Below, piece after piece: positions 11,118 to 39,462 of a stretch of 64,000 nucleotides of DNA. The notes under the pieces are model-generated. The model did not search any database and was not told the DNA's origin. It worked only from the letters and a program-made list of their open reading frames with translations. The position numbers and the translations under genes are program-made. The DNA comes from SAR202 cluster bacterium (GTDB lineage Bacteria; Chloroflexota; Dehalococcoidia; Lucifugimonadales; Australimonadaceae), in contig VGZX01000002.1 in assembly GCA_016872415.1 (NCBI GenBank), positions 19,447-83,446 of the forward strand, written 5' to 3'. The stretch's first letter is position 1, and each line of letters begins with the position of its first letter.

Positions 11118-13415
11118 TCAGCCGCCCGCCGGGACCACGCCGCCGGTGAGGTCGCGGAGGAAACGTATCGCGACCTCCTTGTCTAGCGGCCGGTTGTTGT
11201 TGCCACACTTGGGAGACTGGATGCACGAGGGGCAACCGTCGGCGCATGGACACTCGCCGACCGTCGCCAGGGTGGCGGCCCACAGCTCGTCCACGATCTC
11301 GTAGCCGTGCTCGGCGATGCCGACGCCGCCGGGGTGGCCGTCGTAGATGAACACGGCGGGGCCGCCGGTGTCCGGGTGCATGGCGGTCGACACGCCGCCG
11401 ATGTCGTTGCGGTCGCAGAGGGCGAATAGCGGCAGCACGCCGATGGCGGCATGCTCCATGGCGTGCAACCCGCCGGCAAGGTCCTTGCGCTCGCGCAATG
11501 CCCAACGCAGCGTGTCGCGCGGCAGGTCGAACCAGACGGCGACCGTGCGAAACGGCCGCGCCGGCAAGTCCAGCGGCTCCTCGCCCATGTCCTCGTCGGC
11601 GTAGATGCCCTTGCGCTTGAAGCTGACGATGGCGCGGGAGACTTCCACCTCGCCGACGTGCACGGTCGCGCCCTGGATCTGCTTGCTGGCCTGCGAGGAG
11701 AGGACGCGGATGTCGGTGAGGTCGCGCGTCTCGGTGTAATAGGGCGCGTCGCTCTGCCGCAGGTAGGCGGTATGGCTCGCAAGGTCCAGGTGCTCCACGA
11801 CGTAACTCTCGCCCTGGTGAAGGTAGACGGCGCCGGTGTGCAGCTGACTGAACGCCGAGAACTCCTCGACGCGCTCCAAGATGCGCCCCGTGCCCGCCTC
11901 GACCGCGAAGTAATCGCTGCCCCACGCGGAGCGGATGTTGACCTGCCGCGCGGGGTAGCCGAAGGATGGCGACGGGTACCAGCGTTCGCCGTGCTGGCGC
12001 AGCTGGCCCGTGGCCTCGAGTCCGATGACCTCGGTCTTTAACGAAGGGCCGAAGAGGGCCGCGTCGGCTGGAGTCAGCGGCAGCTCGTACGCGGCGGCGG
12101 CCAGGTGCGGGCCGAGGACATGCGGGTTGTCCGGGCGCAGGCGCGCATGCTCGTGCGGACGCCCGAAGAAGAACTCCGGATGCCGCATGAGGAACTGGTC
12201 GAGCGGGTTATCCTGGGCTATCAGCACGCTCAATGATTCGGCTCCGCACCGCCCGCTGCGTCCCGCCTGCTGCCAGGTGCTCGCAACGCTGCCGGGATAG
12301 CCGGTGAGCAGCGTCGCGTCGAGGTCGCCGATGTCGATGCCCAGCTCCAGCGCGTTCGTCGCGACGACCCCCAGCAAGCGGCCGTCGGCCAGGCCGCGCT
12401 CGACGGCCCGGCGGTCCTCCGGCAGATAGGTCGCGCGGTAGGGGCGCACGCGCTCCGCGAGGCCCACGGAGGTCTCGCGCAGGCGGTCGCGCACGTTGCG
12501 ATACACCAGTTCGGCTTGCCTCCTGGTGCGGACGAAGGCCAGGGTACGCACATCGCGCTTCAGCAGCATCTCCATCAGCTGCGCCGCTTCGCCGCCGGCG
12601 CCCGCGCGCTTCTGGCGCTCGTCGCCGACCAGGGGAGGGTTCCAGAACACGAAGTGCTTCGCGCCGTGTGGCGCGCCGTCCTCGTCCACCACGTCGTGCG
12701 GCTTTCCCGTGAGGCGCTCGGCGAGGTCGCCCGCGTTCGCCACCGTGGCCGAGCTGCAGATGAAGCGCGGGTGGGCGCCGTGGCGGGCGCAGACCCGGCG
12801 CAGACGCCGCAGCACGTTGGCAACGTGCGAGCCGAAGATGCCGCGATAGACATGCGCCTCGTCGACGACGATGTAGCGCAGGCCGCCCAGGAACCGCGAC
12901 CAGGCCGGGTGATTCGGCAGGATGCCAATGTGCAGCATGTCGGGGTTGGTGAGCACCACCTGCCCGCTCCGGCGGATGCCCGCACGGTCGGCGTGCGGGG
13001 TGTCGCCGTCGAAAATGGTGACGCGCGGACGAAGCTCGTCCGGCAGCAGCGCTTGGAGGCTCCACAACTGGTCTTGGGCGAGGGCCTTGGTGGGGAATAG
13101 GTAGAGCGCCCGTGAACCGAGGTCGTCGAGCAGGGCTTGGATCACCGGCACGTTGTAACAAAGGCTCTTGCCGCTGGCGGCGGGCGTCACGACGGCCACA
13201 TCGCGTCCGTCGAGCACCAGGTCGATCGCCGTGGCCTGGTGTTTATACAGCGGCAGCAGGCCTCGCGCGCGCAACGCCTGGTCCAAACGGGGGTGCAGGC
13301 CATGGCGGAGCGCGCCACGCTCCGCCTCCTTCGCGGGCAGGTATTGGACGTGGGCCACGCGCTCCTTGAGGTTCGGAGCGGCGCGGAGGTGGTTGACGAA
13401 CAGGTCGGCGCGCAT
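11118..13415 (-). CDS. DEAD/DEAH-box helicase with C-terminal DUF1998 zinc domain (YprA/MrfA-like)
   Basis: Walker A PAASGKS, the DEAH box VVDEAH, and helicase C motifs (TNALELGIDIG, QQAGRSGR). The C-terminal four-Cys cluster is CPCADGCPSCIQSPKCGNNNRPLDK. Confidence 0.85.
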   Translation of the reverse strand: MRADLFVNHLRAAPNLKERVAHVQYLPAKEAERGALRHGLHPRLDQALRARGLLPLYKHQATAIDLVLDGRDVAVVTPAASGKSLCYNVPVIQALLDDLGSRALYLFPTKALAQDQLWSLQALLPDELRPRVTIFDGDTPHADRAGIRRSGQVVLTNPDMLHIGILPNHPAWSRFLGGLRYIVVDEAHVYRGIFGSHVANVLRRLRRVCARHGAHPRFICSSATVANAGDLAERLTGKPHDVVDEDGAPHGAKHFVFWNPPLVGDERQKRAGAGGEAAQLMEMLLKRDVRTLAFVRTRRQAELVYRNVRDRLRETSVGLAERVRPYRATYLPEDRRAVERGLADGRLLGVVATNALELGIDIGDLDATLLTGYPGSVASTWQQAGRSGRCGAESLSVLIAQDNPLDQFLMRHPEFFFGRPHEHARLRPDNPHVLGPHLAAAAYELPLTPADAALFGPSLKTEVIGLEATGQLRQHGERWYPSPSFGYPARQVNIRSAWGSDYFAVEAGTGRILERVEEFSAFSQLHTGAVYLHQGESYVVEHLDLASHTAYLRQSDAPYYTETRDLTDIRVLSSQASKQIQGATVHVGEVEVSRAIVSFKRKGIYADEDMGEEPLDLPARPFRTVAVWFDLPRDTLRWALRERKDLAGGLHAMEHAAIGVLPLFALCDRNDIGGVSTAMHPDTGGPAVFIYDGHPGGVGIAEHGYEIVDELWAATLATVGECPCADGCPSCIQSPKCGNNNRPLDKEVAIRFLRDLTGGVVPAGG

Positions 13416-13416
13416 G

Positions 13417-13710
13417 CTAGAGGACTTCCATCACTTCGCGCTCGACCTCGATCAGCTCGGCGTCGACGTGCTGCGCGTATACGAATTTGACGATAGCGTC
13501 GAGTTGCTCGCCCACGTAGGCGCTGTTGCCGCTGGCGCACGCGATACCGAGCACGAGCGTTTGGTGGCGGTCGATGGCATCCACCTCGGCGATGGAGCCG
13601 TTGAAGCGCCGGCGCACGCGGCCGATCAAGGACTGCGCCACCTGGCGCTTACCCTTGAGCGAATCATCACACTCCAGATGGAAGGTGAGGCGGCACACGC
13701 CTATGTGCAT
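13417..13710 (-). CDS. DUF503 (YlxP-like) protein
   Basis: 97 aa: MHIGVCRLTFHLECDDSLKGKRQVAQSLIGRVRRRFNGSIAEVD..., the typical DUF503 pattern. GGAGG lies 6 nt upstream. The stop abuts the helicase start. Confidence 0.75.
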   Translation of the reverse strand: MHIGVCRLTFHLECDDSLKGKRQVAQSLIGRVRRRFNGSIAEVDAIDRHQTLVLGIACASGNSAYVGEQLDAIVKFVYAQHVDAELIEVEREVMEVL

Positions 13711-13905
13711 GGCGATCCTCCAAGGCGCGGCGATGCCGTCGGCATGCCGTCACTATAGCATCGAAGGAGGCGTCCGCCGCCGCCGGCGGGATGGCGCGTT
13801 TGTTGACGTCGCAAGCGTCCGTTGACTACTATCTGCATGGTAGCCGCATCGCCGTCCCGTCGCGTGGGGCGTCCGATCCACGAACCTCGCTAATCGAGCC
13901 CATTC

Positions 13906-14541
13906 ATGGCAGCTTCGCAAGACGTCCCCGAGGTCGTCATCGAGCGATTGCCGCAATACTTGCGGGCGCTCACATCGCTCCTCAGTAACGGCGTCGAGGT
14001 CATTAGCTCGCAGCAGCTCGGCGAGCAATTGCAAGTCACCCCGGCGCAGATCCGCAAGGACCTCAGCTATTTTGGCAGGTTCGGGAAGCAGGGCCGCGGC
14101 TACAGTATCCGCCACCTGGTGGACCGGCTGCGGCACATCTTGGCGCTCGACCAGACGTGGAACGTGGCCGTGGTGGGCGTGGGCCGGCTCGGACGCGCCA
14201 TCATCGGGTATCCCGGCTTCCAGTCGGAGGGTTTCCGCATCGTTTGCGCCTTCGATTCGGACCCGCGCTTGGTGGGGCAGCTGGCGGGCGGGCTGATGAT
14301 CCACCACATGTCGCACTTCAAGGAAGTGATCGAGCGCGAGCAGGTGCGAATCGCCATCGTGGCGGTGCCGGCGACCCACGCGCAAGGCGTGATCGACGCG
14401 GTGGTGGAGGCCGGCATCAAGGTCGTGCTCAACTACGCGCCGACGCCCACGCACGCGCCGCGCGGGGTACACGTCCGCGCCGTCGACCCGGTGCTGGCGC
14501 TACAGTCGATGACGTATTACCTGCGGAACGCGCGCGACTAG
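13906..14541 (+). CDS. rex: Redox-sensing transcriptional repressor Rex
   Basis: A winged helix (RLPQYLRALTSLLSNGVEVISSQQLGEQLQVTPAQIRKDLSYFGRFGKQGRGYSI) is followed by a Rossmann fold (VAVVGVGRLGRAI). Confidence 0.9.
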   Translation: MAASQDVPEVVIERLPQYLRALTSLLSNGVEVISSQQLGEQLQVTPAQIRKDLSYFGRFGKQGRGYSIRHLVDRLRHILALDQTWNVAVVGVGRLGRAIIGYPGFQSEGFRIVCAFDSDPRLVGQLAGGLMIHHMSHFKEVIEREQVRIAIVAVPATHAQGVIDAVVEAGIKVVLNYAPTPTHAPRGVHVRAVDPVLALQSMTYYLRNARD

Positions 14542-14580: not shown

Positions 14581-14604
14581 GGGCCCCGCCGCATGGCGGG
14601 GCCC
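14581..14604. terminator. Shared stem-loop between convergent rex and atpC
   Basis: A perfect 10-bp GC stem, GGGCCCCGCC (14581-14590) paired with GGCGGGGCCC (14595-14604), with loop GCAT. It lies between the two stop codons at 14541 and 14637. Confidence 0.6.
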
Positions 14605-14636: not shown

Positions 14637-15089
14637 CTAGGACGGACGGCTCGTCGAGCTGGGCCCCGACGGGATCGTCGGTGGACGGCGGTGCCGGCGG
14701 ACGGCGGACACCCGCAGCTGAGCGCGGCGCAGCGCATGGAGCTCTTGCTCCAGCTCGATGTCCTCGGCGCGGCTGGCGATGCGCTCTTGAGTTCGGCGCA
14801 TGGCCTCCAGCGCGCGGGCCTCGTCGATCTCCTCGACGCGCTCGGCGGCGTCGGCGAGCACGATCACATGCCCGCCGGTGACTTCCATGAATCCGCCGCT
14901 GACGGTGAGGTAGTCCTCGCGGGTGCCCACCCGGTAGCGCAACTCGCCCTCTTGCAGCATCGTCATCAGCGCCGCGTGATGCGGCAGTATGCCAAGCTCG
15001 CCCTCCGTGCCGGGCGCGACGAGGGCGTCCACCTGCCCATCGAAGAGCAGGCGTTCGGCCGTGATGATCTCAAGGCGCATCGTAGCCAT
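14637..15089 (-). CDS. atpC: F1 ATP synthase epsilon subunit
   Basis: Only the last 150 codons of ORF 14637-16352 are the gene: MATMRLEIITAERLLFDGQVDALVAPGTEGELGILPHHAALMT... The ATG is at 15089, 15 nt after the atpD stop. Confidence 0.9.
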   Translation of the reverse strand: MATMRLEIITAERLLFDGQVDALVAPGTEGELGILPHHAALMTMLQEGELRYRVGTREDYLTVSGGFMEVTGGHVIVLADAAERVEEIDEARALEAMRRTQERIASRAEDIELEQELHALRRAQLRVSAVRRHRRPPTIPSGPSSTSRPS

Positions 15090-15103
15090 GGGTAGCCCCT
15101 GCC

Positions 15104-16540
<1,437 letters not shown>

Positions 16541-16585
16541 CTAGGCTCGCGGCCCAAAACGGATAAGACGGCGGGGCTGCTCGGG

Positions 16586-17455
16586 CTAGCCTTCCAACGC
16601 GGCCACGCCGCCGACAATGTCCAACAACTCTTTCGTGATCGAGTCCTGCCGCGCCTTGTTCAGCTGGAGCGTTAGCTCATCGACCATGTCGTTCGCGGCC
16701 TCGGTCGCGTTACGCATGGCGACCATCCGCGCCGACTGCTCGCTCGCGATGCTTTCGAGTATGGCTGCATAGAAGGTCACTTCGAGGAATCGCGGCGCGA
16801 GCGCGCCCAGCACGGTGCTTGCGCTCGGCTCGTAGATGTATTCCGTGGCGGAGCCGGGGTTCGTCGCGGCCAGCGCGCCGACGTCGACGGGCAGCACGCG
16901 CGTGACCGCGGGCTCCTGGGTGATGGTGTTGACGAAGCGGGTGTAGGCGAGGAACACCTCGTCGACCTCGCCCTCGCGAAACATGCGCTCCGCGAGGTGG
17001 GTGATGGCGATGGTGTCGACCAGCGATGGGCGGTCGCCGAGGTCGGTGAACGTCGCCTTCACGTCGCGGCCCGCGCGCACCATGAAATCGCGGCCCTTCT
17101 TGCCGATGGTGATGAGCGACACCGGCACGGGCGAGCGCAGGACGTGGAGCGCCGTCGCACGGTTGATGTTGCCCGGCAACCCGCCGCACAAGCCGCGGTC
17201 GGGCGTGATTTCGACGATGAGCGAGCGCTGGACGGGCCGCTGCGTGAGCAACGGGTGCAGCGTTTCGCCGGGCGGCGCTTGCCGCGTGAGATCGGCCATG
17301 ACGGTCCGCAGACGCTCGGCATAGGGGCGCGTGGCCGCGACACGCTCTTGGGAGCGGCGTGTCTTGGATGCGGCCACCATTTGCATTGCACGCGTCACCC
17401 GCGCCGTGTTCTTCACGCTGCGGATACGCTGACGGATTTGCCGTACGCTGGCCAC
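16586..17455 (-). CDS. atpG: F1 ATP synthase gamma subunit
   Basis: 289 aa: MASVRQIRQRIRSVKNTARVTRAMQMVAASK... with C-terminal NKARQDSITKELLDIVGG. Confidence 0.93.
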   Translation of the reverse strand: MASVRQIRQRIRSVKNTARVTRAMQMVAASKTRRSQERVAATRPYAERLRTVMADLTRQAPPGETLHPLLTQRPVQRSLIVEITPDRGLCGGLPGNINRATALHVLRSPVPVSLITIGKKGRDFMVRAGRDVKATFTDLGDRPSLVDTIAITHLAERMFREGEVDEVFLAYTRFVNTITQEPAVTRVLPVDVGALAATNPGSATEYIYEPSASTVLGALAPRFLEVTFYAAILESIASEQSARMVAMRNATEAANDMVDELTLQLNKARQDSITKELLDIVGGVAALEG

Positions 17456-17476
17456 GGTTACCTCAACTCTCCGGGG

Positions 17477-18985
<1,509 letters not shown>

Positions 18986-19011
18986 TCCACGTCCTCCATG
19001 TCCGCGAGGGG

Positions 19012-19554
19012 CTAGGTCAGCGAGCCTTCGGCAAGGCGCTGCTTCAAGCGTTGCAGCTTGGTCCGCACGCTGCCGTCGATCACCTGGTCCCCGATCCGCA
19101 CGACGACTCCGCCGATGATGCTGTCGTCCACGCGGGCTTCCAGCACCACGTCTTTCTCGAACAGGTCACGCAGCCGTCGTCGCAGCTGCTCTTGCTGGGG
19201 CTTAGTCAGCGTCACGGCGCTCGTCGCGGTCGCTTGCAGGCGCCCCAGGTGGGCATTCAGCATCTCCCCGTAGGCGAGCGTGACGTCGGGCAGCAGCGTT
19301 ATCGCCCGCCTCGTGGCGAGCAGGCCCAGGAACTTCACGACCGTCGCGTCCGCGCCCGGCGCCAACTCAGCCGCCGCCTGCTGCTTGCGGCCAAGGGGCA
19401 CGTTGGGCAGATTGAAATAGAAGCGCACGGTGGGGTCGTCGAGCGCCTTGGCCACGCCGCGCAGCGCGTCCATCCACCGCTCGACCGCGTGCTGCCCCAA
19501 GGCCAAGTCGAACAACGCCTGGGCATAGCGCTTGGCGGTTGGACGCTTCGCCAC
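19012..19554 (-). CDS. atpH: F1 ATP synthase delta (OSCP) subunit
   Basis: 180 aa: [12 protein letters not shown]... with C-terminal [20 protein letters not shown]. It occupies the position between atpF and atpA. Confidence 0.88.
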
Positions 19555-19555
19555 G

Positions 19556-20101
19556 TTATCCCCCGCGCCGCGCCGGCTGCCCGCCGTCCGTCAGTACCTC
19601 GTCGATGAGCTGACGGTGGGTCTGGGTGTCCAGCGACTTGTGAATGATGCGCCCCGCGGCGATGACGGCAAGGCCGGCGAATTCGCGGCGCACCTGCTCC
19701 ACCGCGGCATCACGCTCCCGTTGTATCTCGCCGCGAGCGCGCTCCATCAGGGCATCCGCCTCGGCACGGGCCTGGGCGGCCTGCTCTTGACGGTAGCGCT
19801 CGGCGGCGGCCTGCGCCTGGGCCAGCATGCGCTGGGCTTCGACGCGGCTTTCGTCGAGCGCGCGTTGCATCTCGATCTGGCGCTGCTCCGACTCGCGCCG
19901 CACGCGCTCGGCCTGTTCCAGGCTGTCCTTGATGCGGTTGGAGCGTTGGTCCAGCATCGCCAGCAGGGGCTTGTAGGCGAACAGCGACAGCACGACGACG
20001 AGCAGCCCGAAAGTGACCAGGTAGGCGATGATGCTGCCCAGGTCGAACCCCAGCGCGCCGATGCCGGTCGCTTCCTCGACCAAAAGAGGTGCTGCTAGCA
20101 C
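19556..20101 (-). CDS. atpF: Fo ATP synthase b subunit
   Basis: A single N-terminal TM helix is followed by a long charged coiled coil (YKPLLAMLDQRSNRIKDSLEQAE...). GTG start with GGAGG 8 nt upstream. Confidence 0.88.
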   Translation of the reverse strand: MLAAPLLVEEATGIGALGFDLGSIIAYLVTFGLLVVVLSLFAYKPLLAMLDQRSNRIKDSLEQAERVRRESEQRQIEMQRALDESRVEAQRMLAQAQAAAERYRQEQAAQARAEADALMERARGEIQRERDAAVEQVRREFAGLAVIAAGRIIHKSLDTQTHRQLIDEVLTDGGQPARRGG

Positions 20102-20143
20102 GTCAGCAGCCTCCTTTCACGTGTTCCAAAGCTGTTTCCGTTT

Positions 20144-20434
20144 CTAGGCCACGAAGATGAGCAGGATGGCCGTGACCAGCGCGTAGATGCCGATGGCCTC
20201 GGTGAAGGCCAGGGCCAACACCATGTTCGGCGCGATCGCGGTGCGGGCCTCCGGGTTGCGGCCGAGGGCGTTCATCGCGCTGGCGCCGAGGATGCCAAGG
20301 CCGATACCGACGCCTGCCAGGGACAAGCCGGCCAAACCCACGGCCAAGAACTTGAAAGCGTTGGCGCTAAACGCACCGGCCGCGGCCACCTCTTCGGTCA
20401 CCGCCTGCGCTCCGACAAGCAGCGCGTCGATCAT
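20144..20434 (-). CDS. atpE: Fo ATP synthase c subunit (with about 20-aa N-terminal extension)
   Basis: A helical hairpin with the loop GRNPEA and the carboxylate in AFTEAIGIYALV (E followed by A, the proton type). AGGAGGA lies 8 nt upstream of ATG 20434, which supports the extended N-terminus. Confidence 0.92.
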   Translation of the reverse strand: MIDALLVGAQAVTEEVAAAGAFSANAFKFLAVGLAGLSLAGVGIGLGILGASAMNALGRNPEARTAIAPNMVLALAFTEAIGIYALVTAILLIFVA

Positions 20435-20512
20435 GTGAGCACTCCTCCTGGTAAGTTCACCGTTGTTCTCTAACTAACGCGCTCCGGTGCGTGCACCGCA
20501 GCATGTAGTCGC

Positions 20513-21442
20513 CTAGGCAACGATTCCACCCGCTTGATGCTGGGGAGCCACGGCCGCGTGAGTCGTTTGCACCGCATGGCCGCCTGGCTCGTCCTCATGG
20601 CCTTCCTGGTGCGAGACCGCCATGAACGTGAAGACCAGCGTGAGGCCGGTGAAGATGAGGGCCTGCACCCCGCCCACCAACAGTTCCAACATGTAGAACA
20701 CGATGGGCGCGGTGAACACCGTGAGGAAGGTGACCATGAAGAGGACGATTTCACCGGCCAGCATGTTGCCGAAGAGACGGAAGGTGAAGCTGACGATGCG
20801 GATGAAGTGGCTGAGCAGCTCGATCAGGCCGATGGGGCCCTGGATCGGGTGCAGCCGGAAAAACTCCTTGAGATACCCGAACCCGTGGGCCTTGAAGCCC
20901 CAGAACTCGATGAAGAGGAAGGCGACGATCGCCAGTGACAGCGGCATGTTGACGTCGGTGCCGGCGGACCGCAGCAGGTGCGTCGTCACGTGGTCGGAGC
21001 CCTCGGCCTTGAAGCCGACGCTGGGATAGATGGGCAGGAGCGCCATCCAGGCGTTGAACGCGACGAAGAGGAAGATGGTGGCGAGGATCGGGAAGAAGCG
21101 TCGCGCGAGCTTCTCGCCGGCGACGCTCGACATGAAGCCGAAAAGCGCCTCGATGAACATTTCGAGGATGCCTTGCAGGCGCCCGGGGATGAAGTTGACT
21201 TTGCGCGTGCCGCCGACGAACAGGACGACGATCACGATGGTCGTCAGCCAGGCCGACAGCAGCGTGTTCGTGACGGCGAAGGCGCCGACGTGGAACACCG
21301 GCTGCGGGGCCAGGTGCACCTCGGGTTGGGGGACGAACGGGTCTCGCCCAAAAAGCGCGGCGCCGATCGCGCCAATCGCGAGCCCCACCAGCAACAGGAC
21401 GCCGGCCAGCCCGGCGATCGGCAATAGCACGCGTGAATTCAA
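20513..21442 (-). CDS. atpB: Fo ATP synthase a subunit
   Basis: A polytopic protein with the conserved Arg region SFTFRLFGNMLAGE. Confidence 0.92.
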   Translation of the reverse strand: MNSRVLLPIAGLAGVLLLVGLAIGAIGAALFGRDPFVPQPEVHLAPQPVFHVGAFAVTNTLLSAWLTTIVIVVLFVGGTRKVNFIPGRLQGILEMFIEALFGFMSSVAGEKLARRFFPILATIFLFVAFNAWMALLPIYPSVGFKAEGSDHVTTHLLRSAGTDVNMPLSLAIVAFLFIEFWGFKAHGFGYLKEFFRLHPIQGPIGLIELLSHFIRIVSFTFRLFGNMLAGEIVLFMVTFLTVFTAPIVFYMLELLVGGVQALIFTGLTLVFTFMAVSHQEGHEDEPGGHAVQTTHAAVAPQHQAGGIVA

Positions 21443-21451
21443 GTCTTGCCC

Positions 21452-21682
21452 CTAGCGCTTGTTGTCACGCTGACCGGCGATGAACGGCGCCATCATCCGA
21501 TAGGTGCCGTAGAACGCCACCACCAACCCAGCGAACAGGCCCCCCAGCAAAAGCAGCGGTGATGTTCCCAGTCGCCTATCCAACCACACTCCGGCGAATG
21601 TACCGATGAGAATGGCCGTTACGATGTACCAGCCGATGCCGGTGAACACGAGGCCCGTGACCCACCACGGTCGGCTGTTCAT
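21452..21682 (-). CDS. AtpZ/AtpI-type small membrane protein preceding the atp genes
   Basis: 76 aa from ATG 21682 (GAGGCGAGG immediately upstream). It has two TM helices (WWVTGLVFTGIGWYIVTAILIGTFAGVWLDRRLG...). It is the first gene of the operon. Confidence 0.7.
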   Translation of the reverse strand: MNSRPWWVTGLVFTGIGWYIVTAILIGTFAGVWLDRRLGTSPLLLLGGLFAGLVVAFYGTYRMMAPFIAGQRDNKR

Positions 21683-21697
21683 GCCTCGCCTCAACGA

Positions 21698-21715
21698 TAG
21701 TGAACATTATCACAA
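21698..21715 (-). promoter_or_regulatory. Candidate Rex operator overlapping the atp -10 box
   Basis: The minus-strand sequence TTGTGATaatgTTCACTA matches the Rex consensus TTGTGAA-N4-TTCACAA at 12 of 14 defined positions. The -10 hexamer TAATGT is embedded in it. Confidence 0.5.
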
Positions 21716-21733
21716 CCGATCAAACAGGGTCAA
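21704..21733 (-). promoter_or_regulatory. Sigma-70-like promoter of the atp operon
   Basis: On the minus strand: TTGACC (21733-21728), an 18-nt spacer, then TAATGT (21709-21704). This predicts a very short leader that contains only the Shine-Dalgarno of atpZ. Confidence 0.5.
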
Positions 21734-21769
21734 GGAAACTATAGCCCTTGCGCCTATCCCTGCATAGTC

Positions 21770-21799
21770 AGCGAGCCTGGGATGGCTCCCAGGCTCGCT
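21770..21799 (-). terminator. Strong stem-loop between the nuclease gene and the atp promoter
   Basis: A perfect 12-bp stem, AGCGAGCCTGGG (21770-21781) paired with CCCAGGCTCGCT (21788-21799), with a 6-nt loop. It lies 44 nt downstream of the stop at 21843. There is no U-tract. Confidence 0.5.
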
Positions 21800-21842
21800 A
21801 GTCCTCATGATCGTTGCTCGTTGCGCCCGCGTGGGGGGGCGG

Positions 21843-22397
21843 TCAGCTCTTGCCGAGCTCGTCCAACCCCTTCAGGTCCTTCAGGAAGTCGGAAAAGGCC
21901 GACAGGTTCTTGATCTCTTCCTCGCTCAACGCGGCCTGGCCCTTGTCGCCCTTGCGGGCCGTCTCGTCCATCATGGGCTTGCCGGTTTCCTTGTCCATCA
22001 CGATGCCGGCCTTGTCCAGCACCATGTCCTCGACGTAGATGGGCACGCTGGCGCGCACGGCCACCGCGATGGCGTCGCTGGGGCGGCAGTCGACCTCGAT
22101 GGCGCCGTTTTCGCCGTCGCGCGCGAGCACGAGCTTGGCGAAGAAGGTGTCGTTCGAGAGGTCGGACACGACCACGCGTTCGACCCGCGCGCCGAGGGTC
22201 TTGATCACGGAGCCCAGCAGGTCATGGGTGAGCGGGCGGGGCACCGAGACGTCTTGCAGCTTCACCGCGATGGCGTCGGCCTCGGGCGACCCAATCCATA
22301 TCGGCAGGTATCGCTCAGCCTCGCGCTGCTTCAGGATGACCACCCGCTGGTAGTTCATCAGGCTCACGCGAATGCTGTCTATCACCATCTCTAGCAT
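21843..22397 (-). CDS. Bifunctional nuclease (BFN/DUF151) family protein
   Basis: VILKQREAERYLPIWIGSPEADAIAVKLQDVSVPRPLTHDLL ... FFAKLVLARDGENGAIEVDCRPSDAIAVAVRASVPIYV is the characteristic BFN pattern. Confidence 0.8.
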   Translation of the reverse strand: MLEMVIDSIRVSLMNYQRVVILKQREAERYLPIWIGSPEADAIAVKLQDVSVPRPLTHDLLGSVIKTLGARVERVVVSDLSNDTFFAKLVLARDGENGAIEVDCRPSDAIAVAVRASVPIYVEDMVLDKAGIVMDKETGKPMMDETARKGDKGQAALSEEEIKNLSAFSDFLKDLKGLDELGKS

Positions 22398-38202: not shown

Positions 38203-39354
38203 CTATATCTGGCCGGAGCGTTGGAAGATCTTGCCCTCGGTCGCGATGGTCGGCGCGACGACGAGCTCGGCCTTCTGGTGGAATTCCTCGATCGTCGTAG
38301 CGCCCACCATGCTCATGCTGACCTTCAGCGCGCCGACCAGGTTGTGCGTGCCGTCGGTACGGTGGCTGGGGCCGAACAGCAATTGTTCGAGGGACGTGTT
38401 CACGCCGACGTTGATGCGCGTGCCGCGTGGCAGGGCGGGGTGCGGGCTCGCCATGCCCCAGTTGAAGCCACGGCCGGGCGCTTCCTTGGTCTGCGCGAAG
38501 GGCGTGCCGATCATCACGCCGTCGGCGCCGGCCGCGATGGCCTTGCACAGGTCGCCACCCGTGCGAATGCCGCCGTCCGTGATGATGACCACCCGCTTGC
38601 CGGTGCGCGCGTAGAATTCGTCGCGTGCCGCCGCGGAGTCCATCGTCGCGGTCACCTGCGGAACGCCGACACCCGTCACGTCGCGCGTCGTGCACGCGGC
38701 GCCGGGGCCGACGCCGATCAGGAGTCCATCGATGCCCTGTTCCATGAGCTCCAATGCCGCGCTTGTCGTCACGCTGTTGCCGACGAGAACGGGAATGCGG
38801 ATCTGCGCCTTCAGCTCGGACAGGTTGAGGCCGCGGAAGGAGTTGGAGATGTGCCTGGCGGTGGTGACGGTCGACTGCACGACGAGGATGTCGGCGCCGG
38901 CCTCGACCGCGATGGGCGCCAGCTTCTTCGTCACCGCGGGGGTCATCGAGACCGCCGCCACGGCGCCGGTCGCCTTGATCTCGCGCACGCGCCGCGCAAC
39001 GAGGCTTTCCTTGATCGGCTCGGTGTAGAGCCGCTGAAAGACTTCCGTTACTTTTTCCTTGGGCGCGGAGGTGATCTGGTCGAACACCGGGGTGGTGTCC
39101 TCGTAACGCGTCCAAATCCCCTCGAGGTTCATCACGGACAGGCCGCCGGCCTTGCCCATGAGGCCAGCGAACGAGGGGCTGGCGACAGCGTCCATGGCCG
39201 ACGCGACGATCGGGATGGAGAAGCGGAAGGGGCCGATCTGCAGGTCGGTGGTGGAGAGCTCCGGGTTGGTCGTGACGTCGCCCGGGACGATCGCGACCTC
39301 TTCGAATCCGTAGGTCCTGCGGAGTTCACGAACCTGGACTCGCGGAAGCACCAT
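38203..39354 (-). CDS. guaB3: GuaB3-type IMP dehydrogenase-related protein (no CBS domains)
   Basis: RRTYGFEEVAIVPGDVT ... PIVASAMDAV ... a TIM-barrel IMPDH-like sequence lacking the CBS insertion. ATG 39354 has GGGGGAAGGAG 8 nt upstream. Confidence 0.85.
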   Translation of the reverse strand: MVLPRVQVRELRRTYGFEEVAIVPGDVTTNPELSTTDLQIGPFRFSIPIVASAMDAVASPSFAGLMGKAGGLSVMNLEGIWTRYEDTTPVFDQITSAPKEKVTEVFQRLYTEPIKESLVARRVREIKATGAVAAVSMTPAVTKKLAPIAVEAGADILVVQSTVTTARHISNSFRGLNLSELKAQIRIPVLVGNSVTTSAALELMEQGIDGLLIGVGPGAACTTRDVTGVGVPQVTATMDSAAARDEFYARTGKRVVIITDGGIRTGGDLCKAIAAGADGVMIGTPFAQTKEAPGRGFNWGMASPHPALPRGTRINVGVNTSLEQLLFGPSHRTDGTHNLVGALKVSMSMVGATTIEEFHQKAELVVAPTIATEGKIFQRSGQI

Positions 39355-39444: not shown

Positions 39445-39462
39445 TTGCGTAATATTTCACAA
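39445..39462. promoter_or_regulatory. Rex-box-like 18-mer just upstream of the guaB3 -35
   Basis: TTGCGTAatatTTCACAA against TTGTGAA-N4-TTCACAA. The right half is perfect and the left half matches at 5 of 7 positions. Confidence 0.35.

Follow-up and report, generated by a model that had tools for sequence, protein, structure and literature searches.

The window analysed here, a stretch of 64,000 nucleotides, belongs to a 2.0-Mb assembly with a GC content of 68%, 106 contigs and a completeness of 93%. It carries a complete ATP synthase operon on the minus strand in the order atpZ-B-E-F-H-A-G-D-C, in which atpB to atpC span 14637..21442. The genes and features needed in the following are given one per line.

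13803..13832, plus strand: predicted promoter of rex itself, TTGACG-18-TACTAT, from the promoter scan
13906..14541, plus strand: rex, NADH/NAD+-sensing repressor, with PF06971 and PF02629 (Rossmann)
14581..14604, both strands: G+C-rich 10-bp hairpin GGGCCCCGCC-GCAT-GGCGGGGCCC between rex and atpC, from folding
14637-15095, minus strand: atpC, from Pfam
15104-16522, minus strand: atpD, from Pfam
16586-17455, minus strand: atpG, from Pfam
17477-18985, minus strand: atpA, from Pfam
19012-19554, minus strand: atpH, from Pfam
19556-20101, minus strand: atpF, from Pfam
20144-20434, minus strand: atpE, from Pfam
20513-21442, minus strand: atpB, from Pfam
21452..21682, minus strand: atpZ, AtpI-like small membrane protein and first gene of the operon, PF09527 at 3.9e-15, with its ATG at 21682 behind GAGGCGAGG
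21704..21714, minus strand: predicted extended -10 region inside the putative operator, TG-a-TAATGT or TG-t-GATAAT
21728..21733, minus strand: predicted -35 hexamer TTGACC of the atp promoter, from direct reading and the consensus promoter scan
21769..21800, minus strand: 14-bp hairpin after the upstream bifunctional-nuclease gene, from folding
39445..39462, minus strand: TTGTGAAATATTACGCAA, a further Rex-like box, placed 4 nt before the -35 of an IMPDH-family gene

Upstream of the operon lies a bifunctional-nuclease gene (21843-22397, Pfam BFN_dom), which is set apart from the atp promoter by the hairpin at 21769-21800. An 18-mer palindrome, TTGTGATAATGTTCACTA, can be read directly from the sequence at 21715-21698 on the minus strand. 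The order on this strand is TTGACC (21733-21728), 12 nt, TTGTGATAATGTTCACTA, 15 nt including GAGGCGAGG and the ATG of atpZ at 21682, the start codon standing 16 nt from the end of the box. In comparison to the Rex consensus TTGTGAA-N4-TTCACAA the palindrome agrees at 12 of 14 positions, with mismatches at positions 7 and 17, and its core GTGA-N6-TCAC is perfect. This match just before atpZ had been described in an earlier note on the same DNA and was borne out both by direct reading and by the consensus scan. The promoter proposed there, TTGACC, an 18-nt spacer and TAATGT (21709-21704), is likewise present in the sequence as claimed, whereas the consensus promoter scan prefers TTGACC-16-GATAAT with a TG before the hexamer (21733-21706). 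In both readings the -10 falls within the left half of the atp box. The TG-a-TAATGT reading is homologous to TG-a-TAGGAT in relatives, and a hexamer of the TTGAC/TTTGC type is found 17–18 nt 5' of TAnnnT in nearly all of them.

We assessed how often such a match would be expected by chance. The figure of 0.2 matches with two or fewer mismatches per 64 kb put forward previously is right for equal base frequencies (862/4^14 x 64000), and the lower rate foreseen for GC-rich DNA amounts to 0.016 per 64-kb window at 68% GC, corresponding to 0.49 per 2.0-Mb genome. Observed were two sites in the window and five in the genome, among which only the atp site has a perfect core. Raising the threshold to three mismatches yielded 24 sites in the whole-genome consensus scan; only the clearly intergenic ones were annotated, the ORF-based annotation being crude and too noisy at 68% GC. 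Perfect-core sites number 43 genome-wide as opposed to 15.6 in shuffles; this excess was not counted in favour of the site, since coding DNA is enriched in GTGA and TCAC through codon usage. Could the palindrome nevertheless be a functionless match in A+T-richer intergenic DNA? The atp intergenic region has a GC content of 59% compared to 68% for the genome, which raises the chance rate, and several of the intergenic sites with two or fewer mismatches, at glnA, gltX and a GNAT gene, have no obvious link to redox metabolism. Even 200 kb of intergenic DNA at 58% GC, however, should hold only 0.26 such matches, and the conservation described below also speaks against this explanation.

Rex senses the NADH/NAD+ ratio and represses respiratory and fermentative genes. 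The gene at the other end of the operon codes for a 211-aa protein with an N-terminal winged helix and a C-terminal NAD(H)-binding Rossmann fold with GxGxxG, the features by which the Rex family is defined. NCBIfam Rex equivalogs score above their cut-off, and the protein aligns over its full length with T-Rex in the DNA-bound structure 3IKT (E 3e-45). The recognition-helix motif RKDLSYFG is identical to that of T-Rex and the GxGxxG motif is kept as VGVGRLG. Judged by these signatures the product of 13906-14541 is a genuine Rex, and since its recognition helix is that of T-Rex the same DNA specificity is expected. Coordinates and strands agree with the convergent arrangement of rex (plus strand) and atpC (minus strand) noted before. 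According to gene coordinates rex lies directly behind atpC, in convergent orientation, in about 35 relatives as well; exceptions include the genomes G031, G033 and G035. The two genes had also been said to share a terminator hairpin. A hairpin is indeed found between them at 14581-14604, while its action as a terminator is our inference: neither strand shows a proper U-run after it, and it is absent from the list of the terminator scan. No box suggestive of rex autoregulation was found, the best Rex-like match in 13380-13960 having five mismatches. A small DUF503 gene (window 13417-13710, minus strand) is located between rex and a MrfA-like helicase gene (11118-13415).

The closest relatives of AtpB are encoded in MAGs labelled Dehalococcoidia, Chloroflexota or SAR202 cluster. 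The presence of the site at orthologous atp promoters, which the earlier note had named as a check, was confirmed: a box with three or fewer mismatches stands just before atpZ in 44 of the 52 loci encoding AtpB relatives, and two more (L006 and L031) have a box with four mismatches and an intact GTGA-N6-TCAC core. By comparison, about 450 kb of DNA flanking the 52 atp loci contain five other hits with three or fewer mismatches. The form found in most relatives is TTGTGATAGGATTCACGC. After removal of sequences more than 80% identical, 26 non-redundant promoters of Dehalococcoidia relatives were left, in which TTGTGATA-nnn-TTCAC is invariant while the flanks drift. Positions 3–8 (GTGATA) and 12–16 (TTCAC) reach an information content of 2.0 bits each, followed by positions 1 and 2 with 1.8 and 1.4 bits. 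Spacer positions stay below 0.8 bits, as do the flanks with the exception of the -35-like TTGAC/TTTGC hexamer, and positions 17–18 hold only 0.2–0.3 bits. In the right half-site the outer AA is not conserved, which makes the atp box asymmetric. These promoters were picked by their match to the consensus, which introduces some bias; the threshold was only 10 of 14 matches, however, and positions 7 and 8 are invariant, although the former departs from the search pattern and the latter was left free. That 26 non-redundant lineages with diverged flanks have all kept the site where it is effectively refutes a chance match, to which we assign a negligible probability.

Two loci (L018 and L034) show a different situation about 330 nt upstream of atpB: CGTGATAGCCT is kept, TTCGGC takes the place of TTCAC and rex is present. 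The loss of the TCAC half-site looks like a case of natural operator decay. In three loci of Chloroflexia and Herpetosiphonaceae (L048-L050) the atp promoters have two Rex-like boxes flanking a separate TATACT -10, one over the -35 and spacer and the other, of the form TTGTGAnAnATTTCTCAA, downstream. The link between Rex and atp therefore seems to extend across the phylum, the architecture in Chloroflexia being another one.

We also determined which regulators accompany the box. A rex gene with PF06971 was detected in 48 of 50 relatives, including every box-bearing genome, and the two genomes without rex (L046 and L047) have no box; the relatives are not phylogenetically independent and this co-occurrence rests on only two rex-less genomes. 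The palindrome could also be read as the site of a CRP/FNR-family regulator, the core of which, TGTGA-N6-TCACA, agrees with TTGTGATAATGTTCACTA at 9 of 10 positions. Among the proteins of this genome are two of the Crp/Fnr type, one of them with a CRP-like R-E-x-x-x-R recognition helix. Homologues of this CRP-like protein, however, were found in only 9 of 50 relatives, among them both box-less genomes. A cNMP-binding domain is missing from 11 of 33 relatives, of which 10 nevertheless have the box, and in many others the cNMP-domain hits are confined to open frames of about 180 aa, which is less than a Crp requires. While rex is present in all box-bearing genomes and linked to the atp operon, no linkage to atp was seen for the CRP-like protein. 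A CRP/FNR-type factor was rejected on this phyletic distribution, since many box-bearing genomes do not have such a protein, and we consider it very unlikely as the cognate regulator.

The genome scan for Rex boxes at respiratory genes, also proposed beforehand, returned Rex-like boxes at coxB, nuoA, nadA and the IMPDH-family gene. When a degenerate consensus, TTGT[GT]AA-N4-TT[CA]ACAA, was used, eight sites with two or fewer mismatches were obtained in the genome in comparison to about one expected. The box of coxB (cytochrome c oxidase subunit II) reads TTGTGATATCCGTAACAA (contig C15:30542-30559), begins 11 nt after a TTGACC and is kept in the form cTGTGATAtnnGTAACAA by about 20 relatives (loci L129-L149). 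Its right half matches the TTAACAA type described for Rex of Clostridiaceae, and the promoter is laid out like that of atp: a -35, 11–12 nt and TTGTGATA. Upstream of nadA (quinolinate synthase) ATGTGACGCGCATCACAA is located downstream of a TACAAT -10 (contig C14:36314-36331). This box occurs in four genomes, the three closest orthologues (L120-L122) having GCGTGAATCATTTCACAA or something similar in the corresponding position, which suggests that NAD synthesis may be under NADH/NAD+ control. The IMPDH-family gene (38203-39354, minus strand) has no CBS domains, is divergent from hrcA and has a promoter TTGACA-18-TACTGT; its box is kept at the same place as TTGTGAAAT...CAA in at least 13 relatives.

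The box in the nuoA leader, TCGTGAACGAGCGCACAA, was found only in this genome and one relative. We therefore rejected nuoA as a conserved Rex target, most relatives having a TTGACG-17-TAGCAT promoter without the box. In most relatives (loci L090-L119) the nuoA start codon follows TTGACG-17-TAGCAT after about 7 nt, as opposed to a leader of 26 nt here, and the nuo transcript is probably leaderless in them. A further site, TTGTGAAAGATTTGTCAA, is located 47 nt upstream of glnA (contig C6:39118-39135) beside a gene for a small MarR/TrmB-like regulator and could be the site of a nitrogen regulator rather than of Rex.

A last alternative holds that the conserved block at atp is an extended -10 (TGnTAnnnT) joined to a conserved start region, its likeness to a Rex box being incidental. 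The key positions of an extended -10, TG, TA and T, do coincide with box positions 4–5, 7–8 and 12, and L018 and L034 keep the promoter positions without TCAC, so that the promoter part evidently does not need the right half-site. Five conserved positions can thus be put down to the promoter as well. The other eight (TTG, A6 and TCAC) are left unexplained by TGnTAnnnT, and other promoters of the lineage, TTGACG-17-TAGCAT of nuoA and the TACAAT of nadA, do without the block. TGTGATA occurs 33 times in the genome, and a -35-like hexamer precedes only the atp and cox copies, both of which have the palindromic right half. At nadA and the IMPDH-family gene the palindrome lies away from the -10, and in the Chloroflexia atp promoters the -10 is a separate element between the two boxes. 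The motif is therefore found in three different positions relative to promoters, as would be expected of a factor acting in trans but not of a promoter element. We regard an element of the promoter alone as improbable, if somewhat less so than a CRP/FNR-type site.

In summary, TTGTGATAATGTTCACTA is very probably a Rex operator. That the 18-mer functions to repress the atp operon by occluding the -10 appears likely to us; that Rex binds, in which direction it regulates and where transcription starts, the predicted start being at about 21697-21700, we infer from the sequence. Redox control through occlusion of the -10, as the earlier note had suggested, is supported by the conservation of the box, by the Rex-like boxes at respiratory and NAD genes, by the co-occurrence and linkage of rex and by the precedent in Streptomyces. 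We propose that the 18-mer would be the operator of the Rex encoded at the far end of the atp operon, fused with the extended -10 of the atpZBEFHAGDC promoter. Box positions 4–5 (TG), 7–8 (TA) and 12 (T) would serve RNA polymerase, and TTGTGA and TCAC the two winged-helix domains of Rex. The extended -10 TGnTAnnnT would also account for a T at box position 7 instead of the A of the consensus. At a low NADH/NAD+ ratio a Rex dimer would occupy about -17 to +1 and keep RNA polymerase off the -10; as NADH rises Rex would leave and the F1Fo operon would be derepressed. The cytochrome c oxidase promoter probably responds likewise, because its arrangement of -35, 11–12 nt and TTGTGATA matches that of atp.

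A broader picture can be drawn more tentatively, and we hold it with slightly more doubt than confidence. In SAR202-type Dehalococcoidia rex may since long have been inherited together with the atp operon as one unit, found in modified form in Chloroflexia, with TTGTGATA-nnn-TTCAC being both extended -10 and Rex operator and the cytochrome oxidase promoter repeating this layout. If so, Rex would be the master switch of oxidative phosphorylation (complexes IV and V), NAD synthesis and the IMPDH-family enzyme in these abundant uncultured marine bacteria, unlike the usual fermentation switch. Independently of this broader picture, the finding provides a well-supported regulatory link in an uncultured lineage whose gene control is hardly known at all. 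Transcription of ATP synthase, and probably that of cytochrome oxidase too, appears to be set by the NADH/NAD+ ratio in this lineage, and the box would be a clean example of one sequence acting as both -10 element for the polymerase and operator for a repressor.

Searches of the literature accessible here for Rex in Chloroflexi or Dehalococcoides returned nothing. Ravcheev et al. reportedly covered Chloroflexi in a comparative study of Rex regulons in 2012. Known Rex operators follow TTGTGAA-N4-TTCACAA in S. aureus and Streptomyces and TTGTTAA-N4-TTAACAA in Clostridiaceae. The box described here shares with generic Rex operators the 18-bp inverted repeat and its spacing, and the targets are in both cases respiratory, fermentative or NAD-related. 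In the cox box TTGTGATATCCGTAACAA the two known half-site types are combined. Two differences concern the outer AA of the right half, which is not conserved at atp, and the candidate regulon, which has its focus in complexes IV and V together with nadA and the IMPDH-family gene, in contrast to the fermentation genes of generic Rex. CRP/GlxR-type sites (TGTGA-N6-TCACA) have the same core and spacing as the atp box, with the cognate regulator missing from most box-bearing genomes.

The nearest known system is the atpIBEFHAGDC operon of S. avermitilis, where Rex was shown by EMSA, ChIP and DNase footprinting to bind the atpI promoter at the operator TTGTGATACGGTTCACGA (PMC5355995). In the rex deletion mutant atpI is derepressed, and NADH releases Rex from the DNA (PMC5355995). 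Expression of atp in S. avermitilis nonetheless falls under oxygen limitation despite Rex (PMC5355995), therefore other regulators may also set the physiological outcome. Both systems combine a regulator of the Rex family with an F1Fo operon starting with atpI or atpZ, and the operators are near-identical: TTGTGATACGGTTCACGA there, TTGTGATAATGTTCACTA here and TTGTGATAGGATTCACGC in most relatives. Promoter occlusion relieved by NADH is established by experiment in S. avermitilis and predicted here. The arrangement differs in that the S. avermitilis footprint extends from -50 to -22 over the -35 and spacer, whereas the box here covers the predicted extended -10. In Streptomyces rex is part of a rex-hem operon away from atp, whereas it is convergent with atpC here, and the two systems belong to different phyla, Actinomycetota and Chloroflexota. 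Repression of atp by Rex is already established in Streptomyces, and our finding extends this known biology without changing it.
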